A stretch of 62,099 bases of DNA, counting the filler, from Streblomastix strix (lineage: Eukaryota), in the NCBI GenBank assembly GCA_008636045.1. It is 4 parts of 4 records of this genome, joined end to end, with 100 filler letters (N's around TTAATTAATTAA, not from the genome) between each part and the next. Parts side by side here need not be neighbours in the genome. Positions count along the whole stretch, not along the records: positions 46,659 to 62,099 come from SNRW01000984.1; 3 more parts are not named here. One strand, 5' to 3'. Below are positions 10,552 to 62,099 of this stretch, one piece after another (the first letter of the stretch is position 1; every line of letters starts with the position of its first letter). The notes under the pieces are model-generated. The model saw only the letters and a program-made list of their open reading frames with translations. It had not been told where the DNA came from and made no database searches. Both the position numbers and the translations under genes were made by a program.

Positions 10552-10570
10552 TTGTTTATTTTTAAATATT

Positions 10571-25415: not shown

Positions 25416-25454
25416 TTTTTAGTCGAAAAATAAACAACTTCGTTGATTTAATCC

Positions 25455-31107: not shown

Positions 31108-31199
31108 CAAATTATTGTACATATCCATATATTGCATAGGTACTTTTCTACCAAAATTATCATATAATGTAAACACTAACGTTTTGTTCTATCCTACAA

Positions 31200-31503
31200 G
31201 GCATTAGCTCCTAAAAATTATATGATTGCAACTAATTACAATGAAAATTCAAAAATAAAATTAAAAGGAGTTAATTAGAAAACTAACAAGATCACTAAAG
31301 CATAGATAATCGATTGCATTAATGAAGAAAAAATAACGAAATGTACAAACATGAGGTTTGGCTAGAAAAATAATTAGATGAGTCAATTAGCTATAGAGAA
31401 GAATGAAATCACTGGTATACACACGAAAATGCTTGAGCTAGAGAATCAATCATGCTGCCCGTTTATTTTCTAATTAATTGCGACTAATTACTCGTTCAAT
31501 TGA
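31200..31503 (+). pseudogene. pPolB C-terminal fragment
   Basis: ALAPKNYMIATNYNENSKIKLKGVNQKTNKIT...QSCCPFIF. Confidence 0.8.
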
Positions 31504-31507
31504 AGAA

Positions 31508-32551: not shown

Positions 32552-32567
32552 TTTCAAAAATAATAAA

Positions 32568-33664: not shown

Positions 33665-33685
33665 TTAATTTCAAAAATAAATTAA

Positions 33686-35902: not shown

Positions 35903-35928
35903 TTCTTCAAAAATAAATTGATCGAGTT

Positions 35929-36138
35929 TCATCCACGTTTATTGACTAATCGATCAAAATCACCTGCTAAATTAGCTAATGCACCTAATGTGCCACTAAT
36001 AGCAAGATGAATCATTCCAACTGGGCCAGATATAGTTGATAAAACTTTACGTAATGCTGGAGCTACCCCTTACGCTGCTTTCTTAACACAGCCTAAAATT
36101 TTTGATCAAAAATTCGCTATTCCAGAGAAGAATCCCAT
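35929..36138 (-). pseudogene. pVI-like amphipathic peptide, copy C (GGA>TGA at codon 11)
   Basis: Ortholog of 8180-8389, same 210-bp length. Confidence 0.7.
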
Positions 36139-36204
36139 TTTGATTTAATATAAATTTTATTATCATTATCGTCATTGGCGTACAGCTATTTTTGTTTTAT
36201 TGAA

Positions 36205-38150: not shown

Positions 38151-38168
38151 ACAAAAATAATTATTTTT

Positions 38169-38294
38169 TCATTTGCATATCTTTGATTCACACACATATT
38201 TGATTACTGCTTCCCAAATTGTCTTAAAGATAGAATGCCAATTAATGTTCAATTAATCTAAAGCGTAAATAATTGTCTTATTAAACCCATCCAT
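38169..38294 (-). CDS. 41-aa micro-ORF, copy C
   Basis: MDGFNKTIIYALDQLNINWHSIFKTIWEAVIKYVCESKICK. Confidence 0.6.
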
Positions 38295-38314
38295 TTGTTT
38301 ATTTTTGAATTGAT

Positions 38315-39072
38315 TAACTAGCTGACTAATTATGAATTGCATATGAATCACAAACTTAAACACAAAAGTAATCAGGTAAATGAAGCTAACACATCGTTTT
38401 AATTATAACATTACCATTAGGATTAATATAGCAATCAATAGCAATTGCACCAATCCAATCTATTGGATAACAATATACGGTTTACGCAAACATAACTACA
38501 TTTAATGGTATGTTACTTGGTGTTCCAATGAACTTTGGTTTTATAGCACTATCAACGATTGAGAATAAAGTATATCCATCGTAATGTACTGTATCGGGAT
38601 CAGAGTGAGCCATGAACAATGATATATATACTCTACTATTTTAAGTTGATAATGTATCCCATATTCGTTACTCATACATTCCATATGCAATTGCTGAATA
38701 ATGTGCATTTTCAATTGGTTCATAGGATAATTAATCTATATCTATAGTATCTCCATTAGCAAATAGGATTTAGTTATTTGTTCCTCCTTATTTAACAATT
38801 TTACTAGCAGTGATGGGTTATAAAAATGTCTTGATTCCTCTAATCATCTAGTCTGTATGTAGATTAACAAAATCGATAGAATTCCTAAAGAATTAACTCA
38901 AATAATTAAAATACTTTATTATTTCTTAATCAATGATTTATAATAATGTATTTCGTTCTTTAATTTATTTTTATTATTATTTCTACAGTTGTTTTAATTT
39001 AATTGCCTATTCTTATTACATAGATTATTCTTCTTCATCAATCATATCTAAATCACTTAATTATTGATCCAT
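38315..39072 (-). CDS. Short fibre-like protein, copy C
   Basis: DFVNLHTDQMIRGIKTF..IVKQGGTNNQILFANG; ortholog of 10571-11340; 3' end approximate. Confidence 0.6.
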
Positions 39073-39096
39073 TTTTATAACAAAAATAATCGTTCA

Positions 39097-39534
39097 TCAA
39101 ACGTAGTACTATATACAATTAACTTCATTTTTATCTTCGCATTAACCGTACTAATTGAATTTTGTTTGTTCTTATATTTATTTAATTGCTTGTTTCATTT
39201 CATAAAATTTAGTTGCTTCTGCTTCAGTAAAGTTAAGTATTGGAAAATGAGAAATGCTATCACTAAGTTCTTTCATCTATTATGTATACTGTTTAATTGT
39301 TTCTTCAATATGTTCATTATTTATTTATTCGATCATTATGCAAATTGCATTTGGAATCTATTGACTATTTCCATAACGCTATAATAATTTATAGTATGGT
39401 TTATTATATTAATTTATTGTTCGTTAATAGAAATCATCATTACATTAATATATTTGTTCAACACATATTTCCTTTGCAATATTTTAAGGTTTCACAAGCA
39501 ATTTTACTCTAACGATTTTGGATTGTGAAAGCAT
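39097..39534 (-). CDS. 145-aa orphan ORF occupying the slot held by HNH-2 in copy A
   Basis: Intact code-6 ORF MLSQSKIVRVKLLVKPQNIAKEICVEQIYQC...EVNCIQYYV. Confidence 0.6.
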
Positions 39535-39592
39535 TAATGTAATAAGTAAAATTAAATAATTAGTAAAAAAAAATAGATTGCTAAAACAATTA

Positions 39593-40289
39593 TCAAAAAT
39601 CATTATCGATAATCTCTATCTCAGGTTCGTCAGATAAACGAACAAAGTCACAATTTACTCGATACAATTTCTCAATTGAATTGTAGAGCATATTATCCAA
39701 TACTTTAACTGATACATTTTTAATTAATATATCCATCACGCGAATCAAATCCTACTTTTTATATGACTTGTTTATACATGAGCGGGATCGCATTAATGGT
39801 TCTTCAAATACAATTTCAAAATCATCTCCATTTTCTTAATTGATTAATGACCAAAGTTTAATGAAATTATCTGATGAAAATATGAAATCATCTCCTCTTT
39901 TTCTTGTAGTGATTGTCGCCCACAATTTATCAAAAATGAATTTCATTACCATCGGATTAGGATGTGAAAGATAAGTATTTTTAACTACTTCCTCTGGTTC
40001 AAACTTAAGCAGTTGTTCTTTCAATTTATTTATATTTATCTTTATTATATTTACTCTTATAATTAGTAATTTTTTATTCTTTAAGGATCAATTACTCAGA
40101 TGTTGATGTAATAATTTCATTTTCGGTTTATTTTTCATTTTCTTTTGGGTTAGCATTTATGCCGTCAATGGAGTTGGTAATCGTTTTATAAATTGCAGGC
40201 ATTGATTTTATATGACTAATTGCTTCATCGATCAATTTCAATCTTATTTTATCTTCATCAATTAATTCTTTATGTTTAATCTCAGACAT
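39593..40289 (-). CDS. Viral hypothetical protein, ortholog of 11953-12620
   Basis: Nucleotide similarity to copy A. Confidence 0.6.
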
Positions 40290-40366
40290 TTATATTTTAG
40301 ATTTTGACATGCGAATTTAGTTTCTTTCTATGTCTTTTATCATTTTCTTAATTTAAAATTATTCAT

Positions 40367-40984
40367 ATGGACTTTCAAAACGCATTGAAGAATTTAATAG
40401 AGAATGGAACAAATATTGAATACTTTGACAACGGATATGTCATCCAAATTAATAAAGATATTAAAGTGTTCGAAGAAGGAAAAAAGACACTTAAAAAATT
40501 AACTTAAACATAGTAGAATAAATTATTATTATAAGCCAGAGGTGGTGCTGCTCCAAAGAAAAATGTTTAAAAAGCATATTAAAAATAAATTGAAGATGAA
40601 GATTTTATATCTTATGAACAAGAAGATGAATAAAATGAAAGTGATGATTCCATAAGTGAAATACGAGAAAAACCATTAAAGAAATAAATTAGAAAAAGAG
40701 TAGTAAAAATATAAAAAACTCCATAAATTAATTATACTAATCCACTACTTGATTTAGAAGAATTAATCAAATTATGGATAGAAAATTCATTTATTAAGCA
40801 ATAGCATTAAGATGCTATCAAACAAATAGAGAAATATAAATTAAAAGCAAAACGAAACAAATAATCAAAATAGATAGTTGAAAAGGAAGAGCCATAACAA
40901 GTTTAACACGAACCATAATAAATCATTCAAGAACAGCTCCAAGAAGAACAGTAATAAGACTACAATGATTTTGATTTATATTGA
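40367..40984 (+). CDS. Viral hypothetical protein, ortholog of 12698-13316
   Basis: Nucleotide similarity to copy A. Confidence 0.6.
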
Positions 40985-41084
40985 TTGATATGAGTTAATC
41001 CTCAATAATTTATTTTTAATAATTAATTAACATCTATGATGCCAGCACCTTTGGTGTTAGCATTGCTTATAAGAATGTTCGCAA

Positions 41085-41302
41085 TAAGTTCAAAACCATA
41101 TTTATTATAATCAATTTATTCACATTTGTTCTATTTCATCAATTTGTACATTTTCCTATGATTAATGGTACCATACCTATGTATGTGCTTCCGCTCTAGG
41201 GATTTTCGCAAATTGACGAAAAAAGTTCAAAATCGCTGGTAATTTGATTATAATAAATACGATTTGAACTTACCCCAAACTTCTTCTTTCTATACTATTA
41301 CT
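41085..41302. repeat. Right terminal hairpin and terminus of copy C
   Basis: Homolog of 13884-14096 retaining the inverted-repeat structure. Confidence 0.8.
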
Positions 41303-41459
41303 ATTTATTTCAGAGCATTATTAGAAACTGAATATAGATATTTTATTTTGACAATCAGAAAGAAATTGATATTCACATTTGAAGAATGATTTTTATTGTT
41401 TGAATATAAAAGAGAAAAAATATGGATATCATCATAAAATAAACAATTATTATTATTTC

Positions 41460-42097
41460 ATTATAATAATCATTTTAATAATACAGCGAAATACAATTTT
41501 TTTTCTTCTCATTTCTTCTTTCAATTATTTGATTTCATCATCTTTTTCTTTTTCTTTGTTTACAATTTCTTCCTAATTGTTTTGATCCAATTTTTGAGCT
41601 CTTTCTTGTTATTCTAATTTATCTGCTATTTCTTATCTGAGATCAAATTCAGCTTTCTTCTTCTCCTTTTATTTTTCAATTAACCTCTTTTCAAGTTCTT
41701 CGCTGTTCTGGATCTGAATTTTAAGTTCTTTTTTCTCTTTTCTTTCTTTAACTGCTGATTCTTTTTCTTCTTTTGCTGATTTCTCTGCTTTTAAGCATTG
41801 CTAATTTTCATCTCTGAGCTGAGCTTTCAGAGTTCTTATTTCTTCACCACATTTAGATTCAACTTCGCATTTTTCTTTCCTTAGTTACTCGTTTTCTGCA
41901 CGAAGAGCGCGATTTAATGACAATATTGCGTCATTCTTTTGAGTTATTATATGAAAGAAATTATATAAATAATAATATTTAGAAAAAAAAATTTAAAAAT
42001 AAAAAAAAATTTATACATCTGGAATAATTGTTAGATTTCCTGGAATATCAACTGAAAGGGTAGATTAATCAGAAATTTTCTTAGGATCAATACTCAT
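41460..42097 (-). CDS. Host coiled-coil protein with an intron
   Basis: MSIDPKKISDQSTLSVDIPGNLTIIPD, AT-rich GT-initiated intron, then K/E-rich heptads (LNRALRAENEQLRKEK...). Confidence 0.5.
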
Positions 42098-43329
42098 TTT
42101 TGTTTCTGAAGTTATACGATATAAAAATAAAATAAATAAATGAATAATTAACTTGTATTGAAGGTTCTTTTGCTTATTTTTAAAAATAAAAATTCAAATT
42201 AAAAAAATAGAGTGTTCAATGGGATTAATCTTTCAATAATTACAAATTAATTAAATAAAATGTTGAAACTAAAAATTTTTGGATATATCAAGTCGATTAA
42301 CAGAAGGTTTAGATTATAATCAGCAGAATAAAAATTTATATTAAAAATATTATTAAAAGCGCCTAAGAAATTGAAAATAAATAATAAAAGTAGTAGAAAC
42401 CGCGTGCAAAAATAAAAATTAACTGATGCAAATACATTGATACAATTCAATCACTGAGTGTGTGGGAAAAAGCAGCACTATTTAACAGGAAAAAAACAGC
42501 GATACAAAACGTTAATACATATAAAAGATTCTAACTTATAGAATTCATAATTATAATTTGCTTATAATAATTTAATTTCTATTTTAAATATAATTATAAT
42601 CAATTTATCGCTACAGAAGAAAAGTTCAATTTATTAAGTTTAATGTTTTTGCAAATCTAATATTTAAATAAAATTTTACAGATATTTATATTTTACACGC
42701 AATTGTTCTAAAAAATATATTTTTTATTAATCAATAATAGCTTTAAATAACAATAAACTTTTTTTATTTTAAAAATCACTGAGTTTCATAAGAACCTAAT
42801 TGTTAAATTGTGATTAGATATTTATTTTAATTTAATGATTTTTTAACTATGTTAATTTTGATCTCCAATTTATAATAATAATCTCAAAAGATTATTAAAC
42901 AATAAATTTATAAAATACCAAAGTGCTTTTTCTCATTTTTTTTGTATTCTTATTTAATTTTTTATTTATTTTAATATTTTTTAAAAGAAGAACACATTTA
43001 AAAATATTTTCTTTATTTATTTCAAACATTTTTTCATTAATCACTAAATAAATTTCCACTTTTTGTTATCTTTTTATCTAATTTATTTCATTTTTTTTTT
43101 TAATTTGCATTAATTAGATCCAGAATTATAAAATTCTCTCTCAAAAATGAATTTTCATATAATAATTTGTACCAATTTCTTGATTTTATTTATAAATTTT
43201 TATTTACTCTTTCTAATTATTAATGATTTTTTTCTTTTAAACAAATAAAATAAATATCATTATATTTTTTTTTTTATTTTTTATTTTATTTTTAAAATTT
43301 AATTACAATAGAATATTTGTGGTTTTGTG

Positions 43330-45650
43330 GTGAAATGGAAGGAAGACATTAATATAAATGAATTAAAAGAACTTTTCACTCATTTTGTTTAAATTGATTT
43401 GATTATAGAGAAATAAAGAAGCGAAAATAAAATTAAGAATTTGCTAGTTTTATTTCTGAAGAAGCAACAATAAAATGCAAATAAAGAAAAAGAAGGAAGC
43501 ATAGTTTCAAATTAAGTTATTGAACTGGAAACCATTAGACAATTAATATAACATTCTCAACTGACAGACCCTAATATCTAACATGAAATACATTCAAATT
43601 CTTAATCTATTTCAAATCAAAAACTTCTAATTTAGAATGATTAAAGTAATCGTTTTATCACAAATCAAACTGAACCTATTTAAATATCATAATTAATACC
43701 ATATCCTAATCAGCTATTATAGAATGATTAAAATAAACTAATCAAAATTAATAAACCAAAACATATATCGATTTCTAAAACAATTTCAAAACATTTACAA
43801 TAAATGCAAAATAATTTAAATTTGTAATTCATCTCAAATCATCTCAATCCAGTTTCAATTTCTGATCCAACTTAAAATCTTAAATTGTTAACATTAATTG
43901 ACAGAACCAAGTTCTTCTTCACAAATATAAGTCCATAAGCGACTTCTAATGAATTAATTGATCTATTTTCGTGATATAATCCAACACATTGTTCTATTCT
44001 ATAGAAAAAGTTTGAAGAAATGTAGAATTAATCTGATTATAGGTTTGCTGATTTTACAAATGAAATAGATGTTAGTCATTCAATCTGTGATTTGAATTAC
44101 TTTAAATTTTAAGGATATAAACTTGATATCGAATTCTGCTACAAACCATAAATTCAACCAAAACAACAGAATCATTTTAATTTGAATTCTCCAATATAAT
44201 CATCAAGTAATTAATTTCAATAACAATTTTATCCTAAATAAAAGCTACTTAATTTTCCTTCTTCATTAACATATTAACAACCATAATAATAATATCAGTA
44301 AAAATAATTCTACATTCATTCTCTTTAATCTCAAAAATAAAATATCATCCGAAAATATCATCAAATTCTTGAAATGTTTCATCATTATAAATATCACTAT
44401 CTAATACAATCATTGTTCATATAATGGATTAGTAACTGCATCAATCTAGTTCATTGATGAAAATACAGCATATAATTCATATTAATTTGATTATAATTCA
44501 ATATTATAAGGAAATATAATTTCATCTGATATTGGATTAGAAACTCTTTAGCTTAACATTTAACATCTCAAGATTAACCATAATAATAAATAATCACATC
44601 ATAAACTCAAAGTTATTTAAAAAGCAGAACAAAAATCTAATAAAAAAGATAAAAGAATTCTTATTATTCGAAATCTGAGTCTAAATACCACAAATAAATC
44701 GTTGATGAAAGTCTTTCTGGTTTTGATGTAATAGAAGATTAAATTCCAGGAAATTAGCCAGAAAACAGACCAAGATTTTTGATTTGCATCCTTCAGAACT
44801 AAAAATGAAGCTAAAAGAGTTAAGGAAAGACTAAATGGAAGGAGCATTGATGGATGAATTGTTTAGATTTTAAAAAGAAATACTAATGATTAAGAAGTAA
44901 ATATCAGAAGAGTTAATAATCATTTACAAACAAAAGTGAATAAATAATCTCATCTAATTGTAATTAATTAATCATAAACAAAAATAAACAATAATAATCT
45001 TCAATGAAAAAGAAAAATAATTCTAAATCCAAATCAATAATAAATTCCCAGATTATCCATTTTAATTGAAAATCTCAATCCAGAAACAACTTAAAGTTCT
45101 CCTATGGAATTATTAGCTCCTTTCAAACCTACAAATTGTATATTTCTTCGAATCAGTTATAAACCAATCTTAAATGTGGATTAATTAACTTCCCTATTCA
45201 AAATGATGCTAAATGTGTAATAACTATTTATAAAGGAAAGGAAATTAATGAATCGAAAGTAAAAGTCAAATAAAATAATAGCCTTGAAAAGAAACAGATA
45301 AATCATAAAATGAATATAAAATAGTCAGATGTTAATGATATATTTGAAAAAGATAATAAAAGTTTCAAAAATGAATAAAGATAAGAAAGTTAGAAATAAG
45401 AATAAATAAAATTCACAATAAATAAATAAATAAATAAATTTGAATAGATAATAAAAACTATTAAATTAATAAAGTAAAAAAAAATAATTCTAATAATAAG
45501 ATGAAGATGATGATGATGATGATGAAAATGAATATAGCAGTAATAGTGATTAAGATTCTGAAGATAATAAAAATGATTTTTCATCAAATTATCTTCCTGA
45601 TAATCAAATTTCACTGGAATATCAGGTATAAATTTCATTATAATTGAATA
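43330..45650 (+). pseudogene. Host Gln-rich multi-RRM protein, disrupted
   Basis: RILIIRNLSLNTTNKSL...FASFRTKNEAKRVKERLNGRSIDG and LIENLNPETTQ RRM-like segments; in-frame TGAs. Confidence 0.55.
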
Positions 45651-46558
45651 AATTATTGAAAATCAAATATTTCTTTAATTATTTAATCATTAATTTAAAA
45701 TAATTTCTTATATTCATTAATAATTTATAACTATCTTTTTCACTATCAATTATCATTATAGTTCACATCCTCTGAGCTTGAAGATATTAACTTTATCTGT
45801 GATTAAACTGGAATAAGTAAAAGTAATGCAATTGTAATTTATTTGTCTAATGATAAAGACATTATAAAAACAATCAGTGAATATTACATTAACATCCCTC
45901 AATGAAACTTTTTCTGTTTCTTTCTAATTATTTAATTTATTTAGTTAATTTTTATTATTTCATAAGAAAGTTGTTTTTATTTAGACTTATTTTATCGCTT
46001 TCTATAATCACATACGCATAAAATGAGGTGTTACAATAAAAATGAATATATTTTATTTCTGATATTCGATTTTTTATTTATTTATTTGATAATAAATGTT
46101 TTTATATAAAAATTAATATCATATTTAAAGAAATGAAGTGAAAATAAAAAACAATATAAGTAGAATTAATTAAAATTAGTAATTTTCTTTATTATCTTCA
46201 AATTCATTATATTAATCATTATTTCTTTCTTTATTATCTGAAATTAAGTTGTCTTTAATTATATGATTTAATCTCGATAATGATTGTTATTGTAATTATG
46301 GATTATTTGAAATTCTGTTTATAAGCGAATATGATGGAGAATTATTTAAATTCAAATTCAAATATGAATTATTACTAATTGAATTTGATGAAATTTGTTT
46401 CAATTTTTATTTATTATGTCCAAATGTTGATTCAATACGATTTGAGAGAAGCGACAGTTACTATTAAACAGAATTCGATTTTGATTATGAAATTCTATTT
46501 GGAGAATAAATCAGTTATTGTAATGATAATGATAAAGAAGAAGGAGATTAAATAGAAA

Positions 46559-46658: not shown

Positions 46659-46685
46659 AAAGAAAATTAAAATTTATACTATAAA

Positions 46686-48010
46686 ATGAACAGAAATCAA
46701 AATCATACTGCTTTTTCTACTGAACAACCGTATTTGCCAATTTTCTTATCTGATGAACAATTTGCATTCAGAAAAACTCATATAAGAAATAAATCAATTT
46801 CAAACAAACAAACATAAATTCCACTAATTTAGTCATTGCTGTCTTCATCATAATAATCTGACTAATAATCAGAAGAGATTTAAATAATAAAATATAAATT
46901 TTATGAAAGTCGATATTTTGAAAGAGGATCTCTTTCTTCATTAGGATGGCGTATGATTGAAATTGGATTCAGTCCCTGTTTTAATCCAGATAATATCTTT
47001 TATCCTGTTAATGACACTCAAATGAATATCGATTAGCAGAAAGATTAGTAACAGAACAGTTTGAATATTACAAATGAATAACTTTTATAATATTTCATTT
47101 AACCAATAAATTATCTTATGAATACAGAAACATCTTTATAATTGAATAATTAATCAATTGATAAAGATACTTTTACTCCTTCTATTCCAATACCACCTCA
47201 AATAACAAATATTTAATAATTAATACTTCCACAATCAACTTCAGTTTCTGCTCTTGCATTTCATTCAATACGATTAGCTTAATTTCTTCAATACATTTCA
47301 TAACATTCTGCTTCACTTCAATGGATTAGATTTGCTCGTTTAATTTGCGTCAAATCAAAACTTGATTCACTTGCAGCTCTGACAAGTTTAGCAGCTTCAG
47401 AAATATTTCATAGTTTGAGATAGCCAGAAAGGGGAATCTTAGTTTTATTAAATCCAAATTATATTCCAATTCTTATTCGTGGAAGATTAAGATCACTGAG
47501 AAAAATTAAAAATGAAGAAGAAATACAATCAATTACAACCAAATCACCATTTATAGACACTCTTCAAATATCACAATTAATGTCATTTGCATCAATAAGA
47601 ACTAATCTCTAAATTGGAAGATGCCTGTCATAGATAGCGGGTGAAGTGGAATTGAAACAAGAATCAAAGATTTCTATTAAAGGACTTATGAATCAACCAA
47701 TGAGTTGCATTTAACTGAGATAATAGAGTCTTGAATATCTGCTTCATGCTCGATCTGAATGTGAGATGATTGAATTTGCTGTAGATAATGAGAAAGATAA
47801 GGAAGAAGGAGATGGATTTGATGGCCATTCACTTGAATATCAACTATTATGTTGTGAAAAACATACATGCACTAAGCTTTGGAGGGATATACACTTTGAA
47901 TTGGCATAAATCTATGAGAAACTGGAGCGGAAAGAGGAGCGAAATGATGCTGCCAAAGAATTTATTAGAGCTGACACTACTTTCATTGGACTCGTTTAAT
48001 GACTAGTAAA
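46686..48010 (+). CDS. Host protein 3' fragment, helical/TPR-like C-terminus
   Basis: Long code-6 coding stretch ending GGDIHFELAQIYEKLERKEERNDAAKEFIRAD; no family recognised. Confidence 0.4.
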
Positions 48011-48487
48011 CTAAAAATATTATAATAAATAAATATATTGGTAAATTTAATAATAGTTTAATAGTATTTAAATATCTGGATAGTTAATTTGGAAATCCCA
48101 CTATTTTATTTTTCTCCCACTAATTAAAAACAAACTGTTTGTATAGATGAATTGCGATCACATTTTTTAAAACTATTTCAATACTATTAACAATAATATA
48201 ATTAATGATGTGCTGACCTTGAACGATTAAATTATCAATTAAAACTTAATTCTAGCAAGAAATTGATTATTAAACAATTTAAATTTATATCCAATAAATA
48301 TTAAATTGTTATTAATATAAAATCAAAATGTTATAAACATATATTTAAACTAAATTTAGATCATTTGTAATTTTTTCGAATCAATTCTCAAATTATCTCC
48401 TGCAAATACTATTTTTTTCGTAATTTTACGTTATTTGTTTGATAATTTTTATTTTATCTCTTGATATGCTGCTTGTTGTTCAGATTG

Positions 48488-50137
48488 ATGAAAATATTAT
48501 TAGTACGAACATATTTGCCTTTCACATTAGAGGAAATCAACTGGTGTTATCAGTATGCAATATTTTATTTGATAATAATGTAAATATCCCTTACCTTTCA
48601 GACCTTGTATTGAATCCGCAGGACAATCAGACAACTTTAAGATTGTTAGAGATGAAAAAATCCTTCACGAAGATGGAGAAACTGAAACTATACATGAAAA
48701 AGTTTTTAATAATTTTTTTGTTATATTGATTACATTTATTCTCATTTTTAAATCCAGATTCTCGAATATACCTCATACATACCATGGGGTATTAAGCCTC
48801 TATTCCCAAAAAATGCTGCAATACTTCACGAGGAGATTCATATGAAAGGATTTCACAAAATTGTGAAGCATACATCTGATTGGTTGAAAGACGATTTTAT
48901 ATTTTGCACTGAAACACATTTCGTGGCTGGTAGATAGTAAGGATATAATGTATGCAGATATTCTTTATATCGTTTTATTATTGTTATATAATTATTAATA
49001 TTTTTACAAATATATTTTCCTATTTAATTATATTCATTATCCATTCCATATATTTATTGATAATAATAGTTGGATTTATTTTAATTAACGGAAGAAGAAA
49101 AGAAACAAATTAAATATGAAGAATTTGATATTGGAGAGCGAGTAGCTAAGGATATGAAAAGCTTCAAAACAAAAGCAGATCCAAATGTGTTTGTATCCAG
49201 TGTTACAGGTAGAGGACCACTATTCCTCAATTGGTATGATAATATCGATGCAATGAAAAAAGATGAATTAGATACGAAGAGTAGATATGTTGAAGGACCT
49301 GTTCCATTTGACCAGACCCCAGTTGTGACAGAATATAGACTTATTAGATTCAAATTCAAATGGACTGGTCTATAGACAATTGTTGAACATTTCGCACCTG
49401 GTGTTTTACACACGATTGTTGGAAATTGTCACAGGTAAGCATTCTGTGATAACGACAATGTTCTTAGAAAGTTCTATTCATAAAAGAAGTATCCAATATT
49501 TGGTGCTGAAGCAGCATAATAGAAACTAAAACATACTTTGTAATTAAAATAAGAATAGGAATAAATGGAAAAAGAATAAAAGAAGAAGAAGAAGCAGAAC
49601 AAGAAAGAAATCAAATAAATTGAAGAAACGAAAGAAGATTAAAAATTGATTGAAAAAAGAAGTTCAATGGAAGAGAAGGAAAATTAAGGAGAATATACGA
49701 ATGAAAAAGAAGATACGAATGAAAAAGAAAATATGAATGAAAAAGAAAATATGAATGAAAAAGAAAATATGAATGTGAAAGATGATATGAATGTGAAAGA
49801 TGATATGAATGTGAAAGATGATACGAATGTGAAAGATGATATGGATGAGAAAGAAGATATGGATGAGAAAGAAGATACTAATGAAATATAAGACAGGAAA
49901 GAAGATATAAATTAAAAGGAAGACAAGAAAAAAGATACTAATTTAAAGGAAGACAATAAAGAAGATATGAATGAACAAGAAAAGGAGAAAGAATAAGAAA
50001 TGGATTAGAAGATTGAAAATGATAGAGTTAAGAAGAAAGAAAAAAGGCAAGTGAGAAAAATTAAAAAGATGGATAAAGATGTAAATGTAGATATAGACAC
50101 ATAAAAAATTGAAGATTCAAAAAAAATTGATTAATGA
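48488..50137 (+). CDS. Host phosphatidylinositol transfer protein (PITP family), multi-exon, with acidic repeat tail
   Basis: MKILLVRTYLPFTLEE; YIPWGIKPLFPKNAAILHEE; DPNVFVSSVTGRGPL; YRLIRFKFKWTGLQTIVE; CHRQAFC match PITP signature blocks. Confidence 0.8.
49690..49980 (+). repeat. 18-bp coding minisatellite (D/N-M/T-N-E/V-K-E/D hexapeptide)
   Basis: GATACGAATGAAAAAGAA / AATATGAATGAAAAAGAA / GATATGAATGTGAAAGAT units. Confidence 0.85.
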
Positions 50138-50715
50138 GTTGCTTTTATATTAATAGTTATTTTTGTACTTCAAGTTATTTGATATTTATATAGTTTATTT
50201 ATTTTTATTTCATTTCTTCCATAGCCAAAATTATATATAGTTAAATAGCTACATTTTATTTAATAAATAACCTAACACTATTTCAAATATTTAAACAATC
50301 ATTCCAACCTTATATAATTCTTTTCAAATGATGAATAAAAATTTTCAATTAATTATTAGAAATTTTGTTATCATGCAACTGCTGAAAACGAAAAATGAAG
50401 ATTTTAGATTATTCAACTTTTGGAAATAATTGATATTTATTATAATAAATTAAAAAAAAATTAAAAAAATGTCCCAAATCCAAAAAATGGATTCTGATAT
50501 TTAACGAATATTGGAATTATTAGCAGAAAAAGAAAAGAAAATCTTGCGTCTGAAAGAAGTTTAATCTGATGTAATTAATTTGACTAAGCAAGTCAAAAAA
50601 AAACGCTCCAAAAGATGTTCAGATCTAACAGAACATGGTTCTAGAAGCTGCATCACATAACTCTCCTGTTTAAGTGAAATAGTAAACAATTCTTCTCCAT
50701 AACAAATATAATATT

Positions 50716-50995
50716 AATAATATATATAGGCTACACCACAGGGTTTTAATTCTGCAGCGCTATTTGTATACATAATCTCCACGCCAAATCTCTATCAATA
50801 CTAAGGCATAATTTAGCCATGATAATTGTAACCATAATCTCCGCGCCAAATCACTATACCTACAAAACCCGATAATGTCACGGCTGGTGACAATTTCATC
50901 AATAAGACGTATATTTTAATACCACAGATTACTATTTTATTTACATTATTTATATCCATAAATCCTTTGACACAAATGAACACATTCATCATCAA
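50716..50995 (+). repeat. Left TIR (contains an extra 62-bp unit)
   Basis: Reverse complement of 56890-57107. Confidence 0.92.
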
Positions 50996-51009
50996 AAATA
51001 ACAATATCA

Positions 51010-54000
51010 TCATTTACTCAAAGAGTCAGAATGCAAAACATTATCAATTAAGTAATGATCTGCATTAACTTCATATATTAATGAAGCCCAACATCCGTTA
51101 GATATCACAACCATTTTATTATGAATTTCTGTTAGCACTGATTTTTCAGTACTAATCACGGATATTACCCTCATTTTCATCTATAAATTATTAGTTGTCA
51201 CATTGATGTTCACACCGTCATTCAAGCATTTAATATAGTCATTAGTTGTTAGATTAGACTTCTTTTCACTAGCACCTTTCATTCTATTCACTAATGATAC
51301 TATGTCATCATTTTATTCATTTCCATTGTATAGACAATAACATTTTGGTGCAAGACAAATGATATTTTCACCTTATGATTCAGTTGTGATCCCAATTAAT
51401 TTCTTCTCTTCTGCAACAGTACAATCATTCCATGGAAGCCATTCTTTATAGTGTAGTCATAGAACTCTTAGTCTTTAATTACGTACTTCAATCCATATTT
51501 ATAACCTTTAATTTTTGATCCTGCAAAAACTAAATATATTTAGTCGGTATCTATAATACAGAAATGAACTCTATCCATATTAATACATTAATAGAGGAAG
51601 TTATTTACAAAATTTAGATACCGGAATTTGCTATTATCTAGTGTAAATACAGCTTCTTGAAGAGGCATATTTCATTTATATTGTCTAAATGATTCACTAA
51701 CCATATATTATGCTTCTTCAATTAATTCATCATCAGAATTGTATATATCATCATTTAATTTCCTTGTTGCCTTATGACACTAATTTAATTATTTGATTGA
51801 AGCATGTCGAGCATCATTAAAGGATATCTTATCAAACTTTGCATTATTTTATCCTTCTCCTCTGAAAGCACTATTTAGAATTTATTTGTAATATAAGGAT
51901 TTTGTGTCATTATGTAATCTAATTGCTTCCTATCTCTTACTTATCATTGTACATACAAAAAATTCAAATCCTAAGTATTTATCGAATAGTGCAATTGAAT
52001 CAATATCATCAATAATAAAGTTACAATTGTCAATCAAAAAAACCATAAAATATTGCTTGTGAAGATCATGAATTGATTTTGTGTTGATAGCAATGATGTT
52101 AATTTTGTAGTTGATTTGTCAACAGTTATTTCCTATGCACTCATCTTATTATACATAAATTCTCCAATCTATTCAATTGAATTATTATATGTTAATTTTC
52201 TACATATTGGAGCAAAATTTATATGTGTATTAATATGTTTTTCATCAATATGACCTTTAATTTTGATATAGAATGGCTATCATTTATCATTAAATCTATC
52301 AGCACTCATAATTACATCACGAGCTTTCTATTTTGAATTAGTAGATGTACATTTGAGATAATTAGTTACTCCACCTGCTTGATATATTCGATGATTTGTA
52401 TAAGGGTTATTTTTGTTGAAGACTCCACTAAATACACTTGGATAGAGAGAGTTGAAAGCTAAATCAGGAATGAGAGTAATTCTATGTTAGGTTTCATATG
52501 GTGTTATTGTTTTAGTTACATAATTATATCTAAGTTTCTTAATATGTGTGATTCCCTTCAAATTTCATTAATGATACACACTAGATAAACCACCTTACAT
52601 ACATTCCTTTTACATATTGTATAAAGATTCATTGTTAATTATCATAGGTAGATGTTCATTGATTGCATATTTCAATAGTTGTATCTATAATTTACTAATA
52701 TCATTATCTTTGTCAGCCTTAACTGTATTACATATTTTACAAGCTAGTTAACAATTCTATTTTGTATGACCGACTTAATTATCTATTCTATCTAAAGTTG
52801 GTTTTTTTAGTGAATTTGTTGTTATGTAGATGACATATTTCACTTGTTAATTTATCTCTAATCCAATCAATATCATCTTCTGTAACATTATTTGTTGTAT
52901 CTCTTCTTGCATATTCATCTTGATTGATATTTCCCTTTACTTTATTATTCCACCAGTATTAAGTAATTTCAAACTATTCAAAACTTTTAACAATATTGTA
53001 ACTTGCATCGATATCAAACATTCCAAAACAGTATTTATACTTAATTTGATTAGCAATTTGAGCTAATGATATGCATCCTAACATATCAACTTTCTCTTTC
53101 CACGTAATATTAAATAGAAGATTGATTGTGTTAATCATACAGGTGACGTCCCTAATATTATTGTGCTTTAGATACTCCTATCTATTATCAAATTTGATTG
53201 AATCATTAATGTACTGTTCATAATATTTATTATTAATGTTTCTATTGTTAAGTTTGTCATAAAAATCTTCCTTAATGAATGGTGTTGTTTATCCAAATAT
53301 TTATTAATAGTTATCATAATTGAATGATCCATGTGGAAATATACCCTTTGTTAGTTTTATTTCTTTTGTTCCATATTTCTCAATGAATTACTTTAATGTG
53401 TTGTTTAATGGAATAAAGGACAATATATCACCAAATCTCAAATCAAAATCATAATCTTAATGTGATACAATTGTTTATTTAGCTTGAATTGTTGATTCCA
53501 AATATTAAATTTTAGTCTTGTTTTTAATTAAGTGTTTGAGTAATAAATTCATATCGAACTTCTTAGAATTGAATCCTATAACTGATACTTGAGGCTTATA
53601 AGGAATATAACACTTATCATCAATTGTAACTTCAGGTACATTCGATTAATTTGCTTCGTTTACTTTAATAGCAACCTCAAACAATTAATTTATCCATTAT
53701 TCAATAAAATCAGTTCCGTTTCATAAAGCAAAATGTAAAGTAGAAATTTAATCATTTACTGTCACAGCTGATGCTACAGACAGAGGCTCTAATTAAGCTA
53801 TCACAGTGTTTACTTTAATTATGTTCTCAAATGTCTCAAAATCAAATGTAATGTAACTAGGTATTAGTGTTAATTATTCCAATTACCCTGTTGCAATTAA
53901 TTTATATAATAACTTATTATTTGAAACATGATAATAATATGGCTTTGGTAAATTATCTAATTTAAGTTATTTAGATGTCTCAGGACCTTAACAATACTTC

Positions 54001-56128
54001 TAATGCTTTGCAAAATCACGCTTATAATTCTATTTCTTAATATTAAATATTTTCTAACAATTATTGAGACAGAGTTTTTCATTAATTATCTTATCAATAT
54101 CAGTAATATACATAGCATGAATTTCATCCACTAGTGATAATGGAACTAATAAAACTTTAACAGTTAGATAGTCTTTGTCAATAATATATTCTTCAAATTT
54201 GTTAAATTATTCGACATCACTACGATTGGTTTTAGGTTTCACCCATTCACACATGTATGTTATTACATTTAGCTCAAATAATTATTAATATCTTTCAAGA
54301 TCAGTAACTTAAATAAATTCTTTATATGATTCGAGTAATTATTTATTAGCTTTATTTAATCTACAGTTTGGATTGATATCATGATATTAGATTAATAATT
54401 TAATAGCATCACTAATTCGACTCTTTATTTCAATAATATCAGGGTCTAAAGCAAATTATGCAACTATAAACCAACAAATTTTGTAATCACATTCTACATT
54501 TCTAGTAATTCCTTCTTTATTGAAGTGCAAACATATTTTATCCATTTTAGTCCCTAATGGAAGTCTATAAACAACAATCAAATCCGAAAATTGTGGTACC
54601 TTTAATGTTGCTGAGTCTTCATGAATACAGTCTTAATAATCTGCTTTCATATAAACAGCTTTCTAGTTGAAATAATCATTAATTTGCTTATCTCGAACTA
54701 CTGCATTAGGTAGAGTCTTATAACTATCATCAGCACTTGGTCTGGTGCATAAATAATTATATTCATCTAATATTTGATAATGCTTATATATGTATCTTTT
54801 TTTCTTGTATATAGATCCAAAACTAATATATACTTTATAGGTTTTAGCTTTCTATAACTCATATATCTATTCGAATTCATCTTTAAGTTTTTATAAGCCA
54901 TAGAAATGATTGTAATAGTACTACATATATGGCTCTATATTTTCTATACCTTTTGATAATTATAATAAGTTAGGTAACCTATCTGTACTAACTTCATTCT
55001 TTTCTAAATATCTCTTGCGTGCCTGATTTAGTGCTACATAATAGGCTGATAAGTTCTATGATGTTAAGATAACGAATGCTTTCTAATCAAGTTCCCTATT
55101 TTTATTTAATTACTCTGTTTTTGTCATATTCGGTTCATTAAAGTGATCCTTATGTAATCCATAATATTCATCATTAAGCTTTTTCACTCTTCTATTAAAT
55201 TCTTTTGCACCTAATTTTACTTCTAGATATTTGAGAATTTTAAATGATTTTTCACCCTATCTCTTGTATCTAGAATTGATAAGTATGTATTATAACTATT
55301 CATATAACTTATGTCTTTTTCATTTACTCTTAATCACTTTAGCTGCATTAATTGATTATTTCATTAGTTATTATGCTAAATGCTTACGATAATGCTTTTG
55401 GATTAGTTTAACTGATTTATTCTGTTTCTCTAATTTGTCTTTCAATTCTTGTATCTTTATTGATGCAACTATTCTTAATGGTCTAATTCTTATTAATGTT
55501 TCAATTATTATTCAACTTGTAATTATTTATAATTTGAATTAATTTACTTTGACTAATATATTTAATCTTCCGAATTAAATTCTTTTCTTTATATATTATT
55601 TAATGTATATAATGATTCTTATAATTTATGTATCTAATTAGTGATTTATTGCTAGACTTGTAACAATTATTATTTACCCTATTTTCGACCGCTTTCTTCA
55701 AATTAATATTTGTAATTAGCTCGATATTTATCAGGATTGAATATTCCATCATCAGAAATGTCAGAATTGTTCAATTCATTTATAATATCATCAATATTTG
55801 TAGTTAATTATGGTTTTTTTTATTAATTGCTATCAATTACTACTATTTATTATCTGTTTCTATTATTGGTTTTAAGTAGGGTAGTTGTTATTGTTCAAAT
55901 TATTCCAATTATTATTACTATTAATTATTTCTTTCAGCAATAATTTGATTTACAAATGCAACAATTTCAGTTGTAATAGTTATATGACCTTGATAATGTA
56001 AACGATGTAGTTCATTATTTAACATATTTCTTAAATCAACTGCTGTGTAGTTAGGTAATTATATAACTTATAATTGGTCTAGTAAATTTTGAATCTATTC
56101 TTTACTCATTCTATATTTTTTCTGCCAT
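51010..56128 (-). pseudogene. Protein-primed DNA polymerase B polyprotein (putative terminal protein, OTU-like protease, Zn finger, exonuclease, HNH-like insert, polymerase); several frameshifts
   Basis: ExoI YITFDFET, ExoII IGFNSKKFD, KGIFPH, motif A LAFNSLYPS, motif B YKQILNSAF, motif C IIDTD, CLAPKCY, MKG. Confidence 0.92.
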
Positions 56129-56271
56129 TTGTATGAAGAAAAAAAAGTTACTTTATTCGTGAGTCATTTTTCTAAATTTTTTATTTTTAATAAATAACAT
56201 AAGAATTTAAGTTGTTATTAATGCAAATCCCATCAATCAAATCTCCTAAACAAATGCGTTAATTTGTAAAA

Positions 56272-56592
56272 ATGAATAATGAATTATTATCCTATGTAGC
56301 AATATTCACTTTAAATAGATATATGACAATACTATAATTTTCATTCCTTCGAATATATGGTTAGATTCATATATAATTTGACGGTAAATGTAGATCTAGA
56401 TAATCTGAATTATTGCATTAATATATCAACTTAGCAGAGCTCAAACCAAAGGTTTCTGCTGGCGAAGCTGACTTTTTGAAGAAAATTGAAAACATAAATG
56501 CTATAAATTAGATAAGTGAATAATTTGATAATATTAATGAAAATTCGGATAGACTATATATTACTTTTGTCTATAATATTTTTAGTTATTGA
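56272..56592 (+). CDS. 106-aa orphan ORF divergent from pPolB inside the element
   Basis: Open in code 6: MNNELLSYVAIFTLNRYMTILQFSFLRIYGQIHIQFDGKCRSR... Confidence 0.5.
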
Positions 56593-56889
56593 TACATAAA
56601 GCATACAAGTATTTGAAATTATTTGAAAAATTTTAGTAGTTTATTTCTTATTATTTTAACACACAACCCTATAGCACTATGACAATTTATATATATATTT
56701 GTGATGTACCTAGTGATCTAGACTTTACATAGAAATAATTGATATATTTAGTCTATTAATTGGTGAAGAAATTAATAGTTAAAATTGATATATTTTTCAT
56801 TAATTTTGAAAATAATTCATTTATTTCTTAAAAAATTTTGAATAATTTTGATAAATATTTTAAATACTAATTCAAATCATTTATACATT

Positions 56890-57107
56890 TCATTGATGTA
56901 TGTATTCAATTGTGTCATACGATTTATGGATATAAATAATGTCAATAAAATAGTAATCTGTGGTATTAAAATATACGTCTTATTGATGAAATTGTCACAA
57001 GCCGTGACATTATCGGGTTTCGTAGGTATAGTGATTTGACGTGGAGATTATGTATACAAATAGCGCAGCAGAATTAAAACCCTGTGGTGTAGCCTATATA
57101 TATTATT
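56890..57107 (-). repeat. Right TIR
   Basis: Inverted copy of the left end. Confidence 0.92.
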
Positions 57108-59199
57108 AATATTCCAAAGAAAAATTATAGGATGAAAAATAGGGCCCAACAAGCGTATATCGAAATGTAATCTAAGGTGGATTAGGACTACTTATGATAT
57201 GTTTGCAGACAGTAGCTTCATATTTAATTGCACACACTGCATCATCTTGTCTAAATACTGGAAGAAGAGATATAGATTCACTATATATAAATTCAACAAT
57301 ATTTATAAAAAATATTTTAGTAAAAATTCCAAAATCAAGAATTTCAGGAACATCGTCTAGCGAATAACCATTTATATCTTTTTTTGATATATTTTCAAAT
57401 GATATTCAATAGCTTAAATTATTCTACTTATAATTTCTTATAACGGTCAGAAAAAAAGTTGAATAATAACTATTTGAGTTATTAGAAGATGATGATGACG
57501 ATTAAAAATAGATATAGAAAACAAATGCAGATAATGATAATCAAAATTTAAACTCAAATATTTACTCAAAAGTTACTATCTCAAAGGAAATAAAAGACAA
57601 CTACGAAGTGAAAGTAATAATTATAAGAAAAAGCTCAAAAATGGCAAAAAAAAGAAATTGACTGTTAAATTGATAACTAAGAAACAGAAGTTCCTATAGA
57701 ATAAATGCTAACAAGAAGAAAAAAGTACAAGAGAAGAAATGAACAAGGAAAACGAAGAAATAACAAAAAAAATTACTAAAAGAAATAAAAATTATTCATA
57801 TAATAAATATCTGGACTATAAATGCTGTTATGATGAAGATATTGAAGATGAAAAAATTTGGAAACATAACATAAGGGTTGGTTTCAGCTGACCTAATTTA
57901 TATATGTTTTTATTTAAAATACAATACATTCAATTATTCTATTTTCTGTTAAATTGATCAAAATTTTAGGAAATATCTATTCAAGTTGGAAATTTCATTT
58001 AAACTTTGAAAAAATAAATTTAAATGCATTTTTCTTTAATATTTTAAATTTATTAATTAATGCAAATATAACAAATACAAATATAACATTGATTAATTAA
58101 TAGAAATAAATTAATTAAATTATTTTTTTCAATAAATTATGTTAAAATTATAAAAAAATTAAATTTGCAGTTAAGTGGATATAAAATAAATTTTTTTTTT
58201 AAATTGATTCATTAAAAATCATATATTGCTATAAATAAATAAAATTTAATGTATAAAATTAAAAATGTGCGATTATAAGTAAGGTTTTCAACCAAATTTT
58301 AATTTCATTTTTCTTCGACAAATTTTTGGAATGATTAATAAATATTTATTATTAAATGATAATAAATATTAAAAGATTTATGTTGTTTATGAAATATTTC
58401 ATATTTTAAAATATTATTCATATACCTGGTATAAACATACAATGTTTATCATTTTTACATTTCCCCCCGCTTTAGACGTTACATAGATTCGATCAGTCAT
58501 ATAATATTTATCAAATATGTTAATATTGTTAAAAAAAATAAACTTACCAAAATGAATAAAATTAAATTAATAATCAGTTTGAAAATGAATAAATACATAC
58601 GCGTTTGATTGTAGTTAAATATAATAAAATTTATAAATATAAATTAAATAAGTATGTTATATTAAAAATTTATATCATACAAATATTGAAATTGGTTTTT
58701 TTCCGATTGAAAAATTCAAAAAATAAAATATTTAACTGTTTTTTCAATAATATTTTTATAAAATAGTACATTTTATATAAATATCAGTCATTTAATAATT
58801 TTAAAGATGAGTAATTACAAAATTGAGATATGATACATACCAGATAACGCGAAACGAACTCTTGTGAATAATTTTCTTAAATAATAGGTTAACGAATAAA
58901 AATTTATTTTACTTGTTTTTGATTTATTTTATAAATACATAAGATAAATAATTCTTATTTTGTATTTTTATTGAAAATTATATTTTTGTATATAAAAATA
59001 ATAATTTTTTACGAAAATACTATTTTTTCGATGTATAGGCATTATTTTTTAATAATATTAATTTCACGGAAAATAATAAAATTAAATTCGTATAATTTAA
59101 TTATTAACTCAAACATAAATTATATTGGCTGAGAGTCCCCATATAGGTTTAAAAAGAACTGTTATAACAAACTCAATTATTATTGAAGGTAAGACTCTC

Positions 59200-60180
59200 C
59201 TAAAAACATTGAATATTCGAAATCTTCAATTATTCAACTTCTGACAAAACTGGATAAAGTCGAATTGATTAGACAAGCAAATATTTAACAGATGTTGAAG
59301 AAGCTTCCGTTTTGAAACATGAACTTGAAATTATTGGAACTAAGTGGTGCTTATGTCAGTCTTAGGAACTAAACTTCAATTGGATTTGCTAAAACTGCTA
59401 CAAAAGAAGAGACTAGGTTAAAGATCAGTTAATATTCAGTAGAAACATATGACGAAACAATCCACAAATTCTTAGAATGTTCTCTTGCTGATCTGGTATA
59501 TTGCACTGACGAAGTCGGTTATTCTGGATTATGCAATAAGCGAAACCGAAGTATTATAGTTCAAGTAGTCAATAAAAACAAAAAATTGAATGTTCCTGTC
59601 GAACGTGGTGAGAAGCGTGTATCATCAAAAGAGATGGTCAGCCTAAACGTATAATCAATGACGAAATATTTTATTTTGAAAACCTAGTTGATTGGCTAGG
59701 GAATGAATTAGCTGAAAACATCTTTGAACACAGAGTTGATGATAAATTTCTTAAATTAAGTTTTTATTCCAAACGTTATTTTAACACATGCACATTTAAG
59801 CAATCATGCAAATGAAAGATCAATTCTGTTGATGGATAATTTCCTCCACATTCAACACATTTATTATATGTATTAGATTTATGCTTGTTCGAGCTTTGCA
59901 AATGACACCTATAACTATTGCGTAATAACCACTTACATGATAATTAAGAATTTATAGTACTACTTTGTATTTCTGCAAAGAGATAAGCCACTAAACCAAT
60001 AAAGCATTCGCGCAGGGTGTTTTGTAGGCGTTTTACGCGAGATAGAGAATGTTACCGGATATATTGTCGATTCATATGTTCCTGAGAGTATATAAATTGC
60101 AATTTTAAAAGCGAAAAACAAAGGAATAAAAACTTTGGAGACAATTAAACGTGTTGCAAACATTCATTTTTAAGATCCTT
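59200..60180 (+). pseudogene. pogo/Tigger-like (DDE_1) transposase remnant
   Basis: DLVYCTDEVGYS (NxDETG-like), VERGEKRVS..VSLN, SILLMDNF; heavily disrupted. Confidence 0.6.
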
Positions 60181-61925
60181 GTAAATTTATAAGTTACAAT
60201 TAGTTCTTAAAAATAATAATGAATTATATGAAACTATCGCGGATTACTAAATTATATATAATAAAAAACAATAAACCCATATTAATTTTAAAATAAATTT
60301 ATAATTTAAAAAAAATGCAAAACAGGTCATATATCTTATTTAATAGTTTATTATGGAGAGTTATTTAAGAAATTTATAGGGTATTTTCTAGAGATTAATT
60401 TTATAAAAAAAAGAAAGAAGATAAGCTATAAAATTAAATAGAAAAAGAAGAATAAGTAAATATTGAATATTTGATAGAAGAAAATGAAGAAAAGGATGAA
60501 ATTGATGAAAATTTTACATTTAACTTATAAGATGAGCTAATAAATGATTTTGAATTTAATCTATACGACCATGTTTCTCCTGCTATAGTTGTAACGTTTA
60601 TAGAAAATCCATTACAATAGTCAGATGAGATTTATTAGTTAATTATTAATTTAAAAAGAAAATATATTCTAGAAAATAGAAAATTAAAAGATTTCAAGAG
60701 TAAAATAGGCAGTTATATTTAGCTTAAAATTATTTTGAATTATGCATCAGAAGAGTATACATCAATTTTACCATATATATAATTGAATAAATACAAAGAT
60801 AAAAGTTACCGATATTGATTAAATAAAAATTGCTTATTACCTTTAAATTAATATTAATATAAAATTTAAATATTTATTTCCGAATTTATTATTTTTGTAC
60901 GTATAATCATATTCACATATGGAATAAGAAAATATAATAATAATAAAGTTTTAAATTTAATACAAAGTGATATATTTGCTAGATAGAGGCAAATTTTTAA
61001 CTATTATATTTGAGTATTTTATATGATTTTCTTTTAATTAACTTTCTTTTATTTTTAAAAACTAATTTCTTAAATTGTACTATATCTAAATATTAATATA
61101 TTTATATATTCTTAATTTTAAAACGAAATCATAAATCATCTACGTTAACAAAACTTATAAATTTAAGAAATTATTTGTATTTTCTTTATTTGTAAAACAG
61201 CCGAATAGCTTATCGGCGGTCTTCCTTAACCCTCTTCAAATATTCTTTCTGTAAACTGAACTCCTGTAAAGATTACGTTTTCGACTGCGACATCATATAA
61301 CGTTTTCGAAATTGCTTTAGTGACTATGACATGATGATCTCCTCTCTTTTCAAGCGTAGTAAGATCATTAGTGTTATATATGTTATTAAAACCTTCAAAT
61401 GCAAAAAATCTATAACTACGTTTCAATTCTATAAATTCTTTTCTTTCTTTTGTTTTATCATTTGATTTAATTTTCAGTCTATTTCTTACATTTTTTACTA
61501 ATATCTACAATTAAAGAATGTCAAATGAAGAAATAGTTTTAAAAATTTATATTTTTAAAGATTTTTTATTATTCAAAAATGATATTTCTTGAGATTTAAA
61601 TATAAAGTCAATATTTTATTCGATTCATCGGAATAGAAAATGAATATTAGTCTTATTTCTGTATTAAAAAATCTGTTGATGCTTTAATATTTTTATTTAA
61701 AGCAGACGAATTAATTATATTTGGTAAAAGTGAGACTAATGAAAAAAATTATATCCTTAAAACTTTTAAAGTGCATCTATTAATTTAGACAAAAGCTATA
61801 TATAAATTTAGTAAAAAATAATTTTCAAGTTTTGATAGGGTGCACTACACCGCAACCCTTGCTTAGATGATTCGCTGTTTCCGGCCCCATAGTAATTTTC
61901 CAGGCAGTTTCGCAAAAAAACACCA

Positions 61926-62099
61926 ATGCCATTTAAAGACCCACCGAAAATATGCAAGCTTAAATTCTGTTCCTAAGAAGTGAAAGATCCGTCGTTCGAT
62001 GGCTACTGCAGCAAAAGACATTTCGACATCGCCCGGCAGCAGCAGACCGAGCCATTTATTGAACGTCCTACTCCGCTAACGTCTGTACCAATCTAATCT
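61926..62099 (+). CDS. ORF start with a C-x4-C-x12-C-x3-H zinc knuckle, possibly the 5' end of another retroelement
   Basis: MPFKDPPKICKLKFCSQEVKDPSFDGYCSKRHFD; abrupt GC rise at ~61840; truncated by window end. Confidence 0.4.

Follow-up and report, generated by a model that had tools for sequence, protein, structure and literature searches.

A decayed polymerase-only element in the genome of Streblomastix strix, probably one copy of a many-copy family of Polinton-derived replicons

Streblomastix strix is an oxymonad of the termite gut that has no mitochondria (PMC10703272). We analysed a stretch of 62,099 nucleotides from its genome assembly GCA_008636045.1, in the following referred to as the window, which consists of four contigs joined by N-spacers: A (1–15454), B (15555–31007), C (31108–46558) and D (46659–62099, from SNRW01000984.1). 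Contig D harbors an element of 6,392 bp (50716–57107), in which the gene for a protein-primed DNA polymerase of family B and Polinton type (pPolB) lies between terminal inverted repeats (Table 1). The other contigs carry three capsid-bearing lineages, here named A, B and C; since the four contigs are separate and were joined for analysis, these lineages are not physically linked to the element. Long frames appear in the element when TAA and TAG are read as glutamine (code 6), the code also used by endogenous viruses of Streblomastix strix (PMC10120064); the standard code (table 1), which yields not a single open reading frame (ORF) of at least 80 residues within the element, was rejected. Relatives were surveyed via protein records (labeled P in the following), their locus tags and the sizes of their contigs. 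These copies are perhaps from the same assembly as the window, in which case they represent other loci and not independent samples. Literature is cited by identifier.

Table 1. Features of the element and of the interrupted host frame, in window coordinates.
Feature	Position	Strand	Basis or remark
Interrupted host open frame, left part, 220 codons	50055–50714	+	No Pfam match
Left AATATT hexamer, likely target-site duplication	50710–50715		Sequence; P0061 differs beyond the same terminus
Left terminal inverted repeat, 276 bp, start AATAATATATATAGG	50716–50991	+	62-bp extra unit at 50782–50843
Polinton-type pPolB pseudogene, 1,689 codons	51043–56109	-	In-frame TGA and frameshifts versus relatives
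Palm motifs A, B and C, with changes in A and C here	51540–52462	-	Motif search
HNH-like nuclease insert (LDRIDN...CxxC)	52730–52810	-	Between exonuclease and palm
3'-5' exonuclease motifs I–III	53140–53849	-	Motifs; fold matches RB69 gp43 and DnaQ
vOTU-like protease domain	54105–54485	-	YKICWF (Cys motif, 54485) and IHAMYI (His motif, 54122)
784-bp spacer, polymerase start to right repeat	56110–56893		Partly common to P0060
Right terminal inverted repeat, 214 bp	56894–57107	-	753-bp X1 contig without differences joins it to the spacer
Right AATATT hexamer, likely target-site duplication	57108–57113		Sequence
Interrupted host open frame, right part, 181 codons, same frame	57116–57658	+	No Pfam match

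A preliminary description of this DNA had presented it as a complete element with a pPolB of about 1,700 codons. The boundaries and the codon span hold, but a single open frame for the polymerase does not: the gene is interrupted by five in-frame TGA codons (at 55322, 53723, 52567, 52282 and 51674) and by five frameshifts, three relative to P0002 and two more in the N-terminal part relative to P0056, which leaves the element functionally incomplete. In the palm, motif A is LAFNSLY and has lost the aspartate of the LDFNSL seen in every family protein that matches (24 of 24), and motif C is DTDQ where 23 family proteins have MDTDS. Decay is estimated at about 2.3% per copy from the repeats and at about 5% from the stops. 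Judged from its sequence, this copy is a pseudogene that has decayed by approximately 2–5% per site since insertion.

The gene comprises terminal-protein-like, vOTU, exonuclease, HNH and palm parts, with the vOTU-like domain downstream of the terminal-protein-like domain, whose assignment stems from weak fold matches. A structural model of the relative P0008 (mean pLDDT 73.8, pTM 0.46) matches the RB69 and DnaQ exonucleases as well as OTUD1 (E 0.01) and DUBA (E 0.02), with weak matches to the Y-family polymerases iota, kappa and eta; among viral proteins, it is matched best by polymerases of bidnavirus-like, adintovirus and adenovirus origin, at E 1e-17 to 1e-7. Another relative, P0045, matches Pfam DNA_pol_B_2 at E 1e-9. 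The HNH-like insert reaches E 0.032 against Pfam HNH, which is below the cut-off, and E 0.47 against PacI; its motif is found in 41 family proteins. Polintons and cytoplasmic linear plasmids show the same succession of terminal protein, vOTU, exonuclease and palm (PMC11071308), and an HNH insert likewise occurs in the pPolB2 of oomycetes and nematodes (10.1101/2023.08.22.554363).

The terminal inverted repeats, previously described as about 220 bp long and starting AAT-AAT, were found with lengths of 276 and 214 bp, within the 100–1,500 bp range of Polintons. Both arms begin AATAATATATATAGG, their outer 30 nt are identical, and 204 of 214 aligned bases agree; the difference in length is due to one extra internal 62-bp unit in the left arm. 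This unit of about 62 bp, starting ATAATCTCC(A/G)CGCCAAAT, is present twice in the left repeat (50772–50853) and once in the right (57033–57051), and its number varies, with apparently more units in the P0061 copy and other variants in runs X1–X3.

On either side, the repeats are followed by the AATATT hexamers that the preliminary description had pointed out. Given the composition of the flanks, a match at six of six positions has a chance probability of about 0.001. As AATATT is its own reverse complement, this copy alone cannot separate a target-site duplication from a longer repeat, and the continuity of the host frame across the empty site fits a 6-bp duplication and a repeat longer by 6 bp alike, since both keep the frame. 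In the gene model of P0061, the polymerase end continues into a homologous repeat, in which 32 of 53 residues are identical to the translated left repeat of the window (minus strand); the match stops exactly at 50716 and is followed by ADAG, where AATATT would encode NI. The hexamer is therefore not a constant part of the repeat, as seen in one copy and in a gene model, and the constancy across copies that had been named beforehand as speaking against a duplication was not observed there. AATATT is likely a target-site duplication: it lies on both sides here and is replaced by a different left flank in one other copy, and no second flank pair was seen. The sequence into which the P0061 copy inserted encodes a 243-residue stretch (residues 1453–1695) with a basic C-terminus, which has no Pfam match and no usable match in the ESM Atlas; it could be a viral core-like gene.

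In the window, the element is cleanly inserted into one continuous host frame. Its two parts (Table 1) are open for 220 and 181 codons on the left and right, compared with 44 and 13 or 27 and 6 codons in the other two frames.

Outside the polymerase, no further gene was found within the element. Six-frame translation of the spacer yielded zero Pfam families, and the 106-aa ORF (56272–56592, + strand) that had been proposed as a second gene was rejected: it exists in code 6 only, its length is equalled in 362 of 500 shuffles of the spacer, and no homologue was found among ten candidates. The absence of integrase, capsid and ATPase genes, in contrast, was confirmed and extends to penton and protease genes, as the polymerase fills 51043–56109 and the spacer is without Pfam match. 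Likewise, neither repeats nor spacer were matched by capsid-set proteins among 306 fetched proteins. A helicase was not found in the element, nor, by Pfam, were an RNA polymerase or a capping enzyme, for which no search for a helper elsewhere in the genome was made. Compared with the genes of lineages A, B and C, the polymerase alone finds matches. Part of the spacer, 200–250 bp upstream of where the polymerase starts, is shared with P0060 on a contig of 23.4 kb, with agreement at 14 of 20 residues over 56293–56352 (E 8e-5 against the element ends).

The best matches of the element polymerase in a protein search are Streblomastix strix proteins, which make up 44 of 50 matches at 54–80% identity. 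With cluster members added, the family comprises at least 71 proteins on 68 contigs; seven near-full copies are 84–90% identical to each other and 73–77% identical to the window copy, and three ENA clusters match the polymerase at 29–32%. In a tree of 37 rows built from the C-terminal 148 columns, whose bootstrap had not fully settled, the window copy lies inside a star-like clade of 26 rows (support 100/99), apart from lineages A and C, another Streblomastix strix family and two ENA clusters. The C-terminus of the polymerase is 27–33% identical to that of lineages A and C, homologous but diverged, as had been stated. Given this divergence and the separate clade, a deletion of lineage A or C was rejected, in agreement with the preliminary description. 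The termini, which had been said to differ from those of A and C, do so in the body of the repeat, which is unrelated to theirs (best BLASTN E 0.047), but have tips of a similar pattern, AATAATATA in the element versus AGTAGTATA and AGTAATAGTATA in A and C. In the remainder of the window, including the termini of lineages A, B and C, nothing was found that matches the element repeat.

Several findings are signs of a unit of about 6 kb in this many-copy family. The contig of P0056 (1,653 aa) measures 6,375 bp, within 1% of the 6,330–6,392 bp of the element, so that there is no room for a capsid gene on it. Among eight gene models covering almost the full polymerase, five are on contigs of 5.4–6.6 kb, where about 7% would be expected from locus-tag density (P ~1e-4). 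In run X1, summed contig depth is 800–9,900 over the polymerase, 1,300–1,600 over the left repeat region, 340–2,200 over the spacer and 23–35 over the flanks, although such sums are no copy number, and X1 is perhaps the window's own source. X1 contigs of diverged copies cover repeat and spacer far above single-copy depth, and a 753-bp X1 contig spans the join between spacer and right repeat without differences at flank-like depth; the whole element is spanned by no contig of runs X1–X3. Elsewhere, an exact 33-nt repeat pattern had 0 matches in metagenome contigs, and polymerase queries retrieved no confirmed relative among the viral and metagenome contigs scanned. As for co-location with capsids, a search queried with the capsid frames from lineages A and B gave 320 hits, of which 120 were sampled together with members of 20 clusters; one of the 20 polymerase contigs of at least 10 kb, measuring 10,113 bp, has the same size as one of 52 sampled capsid contigs of at least 10 kb.

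We consider it reasonably probable that the element, decayed and integrated, belongs to a many-copy family of Polinton-derived replicons of about 6.4 kb that have the polymerase as their sole gene and were integrated in trans. The source of this family would be a Polinton-like virus; after loss of the modules for capsid and integrase, the family would have spread as one unit. Since the element has no transcription genes, the host nuclear RNA polymerase would transcribe the polymerase gene. A linear DNA intermediate would then be copied, with the fused terminal protein priming at the AAT-AAT ends by slide-back, and the vOTU domain would cut the terminal protein off, both steps as proposed for Polintons. 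Finally, the linear DNA would be inserted, and the 6-bp duplication left behind, by a retroviral-type (rve) integrase that is supplied by a Polinton-like virus resident in the same genome, for instance lineage B. Lineage B encodes a capsid, an ATPase and an integrase-like gene in its 15.4-kb contig; the integrase-like frame near 29000–30700 was not detected by Pfam, and we take it to be rve from its motif. With this proviso, a lineage of the kind proposed as integrase donor is present in the same genome. rve integrases produce 6-bp duplications (PMC12220804), and the target-site duplications of Polintons measure 5–8 bp (PMC11071308, 10.1101/2023.08.22.554363). Helper capsids may carry the element. 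More tentatively, the family might constitute a distinct class of minimal self-synthesizing elements, Polinton satellites that hijack a co-resident integrase and possibly capsids, with hundreds of nuclear copies, and might be a living intermediate that links Polintons to linear plasmids.

A number of points weigh against a family of polymerase-only replicons. The variation of the flank is known from one copy and was read in a gene model, not in DNA, and the collection scans gave no DNA reading of another complete copy. The 5.4–6.6-kb bin was picked after seeing the data, and repeat-rich assemblies tend to break near repeats regardless. Spacer depth lies below polymerase depth, which also fits many copies that continue into other sequence, and the contig of lineage B is without a polymerase. 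For such elements, assembly artefacts are a possible source of stops and frameshifts (PMC10120064). Lastly, the capsid co-location test is weak: the sample is a minority of the 820 capsid hits counted for Streblomastix strix (PMC10120064), and were the family linked to the capsids of lineage B, one to four overlaps would be expected, with a probability of 0.07–0.74 for one or none.

The main rival, which we regard as rather unlikely, derives the 6.4-kb unit by internal deletion from a longer Polinton-like virus, for instance lineage B, whose full copies would have this polymerase at one end along with genes for capsid and integrase; most family members would then be full viruses split by assembly. 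It would account for the capsid, ATPase and integrase-like gene of lineage B in the absence of a polymerase on that contig, for the many capsids (PMC10120064), for the shallower coverage of the spacer and for the 10,113-bp contig, which carries an element-type polymerase and a B-type capsid. On this sole shared contig, however, the capsid apparently lies on the repeat side: the polymerase lacks the N-terminus and its locus tag is the lower one, which by tag order places the capsid beyond the polymerase 3' end, where the repeat closes the element. A capsid outside the element, with nesting of one in the other, would be the simpler reading of this contig. Furthermore, the element repeat is missing at the visible end of lineage B and elsewhere in the window, element-sized contigs are enriched, and the spacer is common to at least one other copy. 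Lineage B could also be served by other polymerase families, namely P0041/P0101 and P0050/P0088/P0099.

Bidnaviruses divide their genome between two segments. By the same layout, the element might serve as replicase segment in a multipartite virus, with other segments carrying the capsid and integrase genes between the same repeats. Its size and single replicase gene would fit, and the best structural matches include bidnavirus-like polymerases. Nevertheless, these repeats are absent from all three capsid-bearing elements of the window, A and C carry their own polymerase, and no gene model of the capsid set reads into the element repeat, so that we judge this to be improbable.

A very unlikely variant keeps the family but dispenses with the integrase: the HNH insert or host break repair would join the DNA into AT-rich sites, and the match of the hexamers would be incidental. 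The HNH-like insert is kept in the 41 family proteins and the target is palindromic, yet integrase-bearing Polintons have HNH inserts too (10.1101/2023.08.22.554363), the exact 6-bp direct repeats at both termini are a known mark of rve and seldom expected by chance, and the P0061 flank, not being AATATT, speaks against a fixed cut site. An assembly chimera of pieces from different copies, which a high-copy family in a fragmentary single-cell assembly (PMC10703272) and the lack of an X1–X3 contig over the whole element might suggest, is scarcely credible, as the flanks restore one host frame with the same hexamer on both sides and the 753-bp contig links spacer to right repeat.

Among known systems, the element resembles Polintons/Mavericks, including the metamonad ones of Trichomonas and Streblomastix, in its polymerase with terminal protein, vOTU, exonuclease and palm, in the HNH insert seen in oomycete and nematode pPolB2, and in inverted repeats of 100–1,500 bp, a likely 6-bp duplication and simple-repeat tips (AATAAT, as opposed to AGTAGT in lineage A). 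It was not assigned to them, because it is 6.4 kb long instead of 13–25 kb and has no integrase, capsid, penton, ATPase or maturation protease. Non-autonomous Polintons are reportedly covered in the 2006 work of Kapitonov and Jurka. The cytoplasmic linear plasmids of fungi (pGKL type) are likewise capsid-less and Polinton-derived, with inverted repeats and their own polymerase with fused terminal protein and vOTU, and some depend on a helper element; they are, however, free in the cytosol, carry or borrow transcription genes and have toxin cargo (PMC13348850, PMC11071308), whereas the element is cargo-free, has many nuclear-genome copies and shows a likely integrase-type duplication. In its workings it resembles a Polinton reduced to the replicase, or a linear plasmid that has kept the ability to integrate. 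A mitochondrial linear plasmid was rejected, since vOTU motifs are present and the host is without mitochondria (PMC10703272).

The capsid-less pPolB pMVREs of fungi are also endogenous and repeat-bounded and lack structural genes, but are mavirus-related, in a group that commonly has a superfamily 3 helicase (PMC13215967), and mavirus pPolB is without most of the exonuclease (PMC11071308); the element has a whole exonuclease and no helicase. Metamonads go unmentioned in the accessible text on these fungal elements (PMC13215967). Transpovirons are similar in size (~7 kb), linear, bounded by inverted repeats and capsid-less, hitch-hike on a virus and are also found integrated in a protist genome, but encode a superfamily 1 helicase fused to an inactivated polymerase together with several small genes (PMC5499653). 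The element family keeps full exonuclease and palm motifs, and without a helicase the element was not counted among transpovirons. Lastly, the lone family B2 polymerases of Entamoeba histolytica, another anaerobic protist, are Polinton-derived, and no integrase, protease or ATPase was found with them; they amount to four genes with no inverted repeats or duplications reported in the accessible part of that study (PMC3511435), whereas the present family has a bounded mobile unit and occurs on no fewer than 68 contigs. In the literature covered, which did not extend to subscription papers and Repbase, polymerase-only elements in oxymonads were not found described, and the accessible parts of 2026 preprints on small DNA viruses describe no such element.

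The surroundings of the element and the other contigs hold further features. Immediately to the left of the element lies a host phosphatidylinositol transfer protein domain (49154–50137, + strand; Pfam IP_trans, E 8e-14); behind this domain, an 18-nt tandem repeat codes for an acidic tail. Another polymerase family of Streblomastix strix, represented by P0088 in a cluster of 19 members at 90% identity, has an N-terminal HGGLHIY motif, presumably primase-like, ahead of its vOTU–exonuclease part. Lineages A and C terminate in an imperfect palindrome of about 220 bp (13867–14105 and 41085–41308), followed by the tips AGTAGTATAG in A and AGTAATAGTATAG in C, read inwards; these palindrome regions are 86% identical. 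The window contains two unrelated capsid lineages, the A/C type (8456–10399, + strand) and the B type (21481–23466, - strand). The A/C-type capsid has 633–647 residues, and some of its relatives are named major capsid protein in UniRef; it shows no significant similarity to the B type, which is that of Bellas et al. (E 0.064), and so lineages A and C may fall outside the count of 820 (PMC10120064). Lineage A has two HNH_3 homing-endonuclease domains (4025–5659 and 11367–12077, - strand), one of them in frame behind a packaging-ATPase-like gene, and is accompanied by reverse-transcriptase-like frames (1–1200) with a YMDD motif at 3–1019 on the minus strand. Beside lineage B (16090–17700), a 77-bp direct repeat (16090/16405) occurs with a retroelement-like frame.

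Eukaryotic linear plasmids are thought to descend from Polintons via loss of the capsid module (PMC11071308), and those known exist free in the cytosol and have transcription genes of their own, unlike the element described here. If our interpretation is true, an integrating polymerase-only family with 6-bp duplications would represent a step of this reduction inside the nucleus, and would be one case in which Polinton-like elements share an integrase. Surveys that take capsid genes as their starting point (PMC10120064) or require at least five Polinton genes (10.1101/2023.08.22.554363) are blind to such elements, so that polymerase-only elements may be widely missed.

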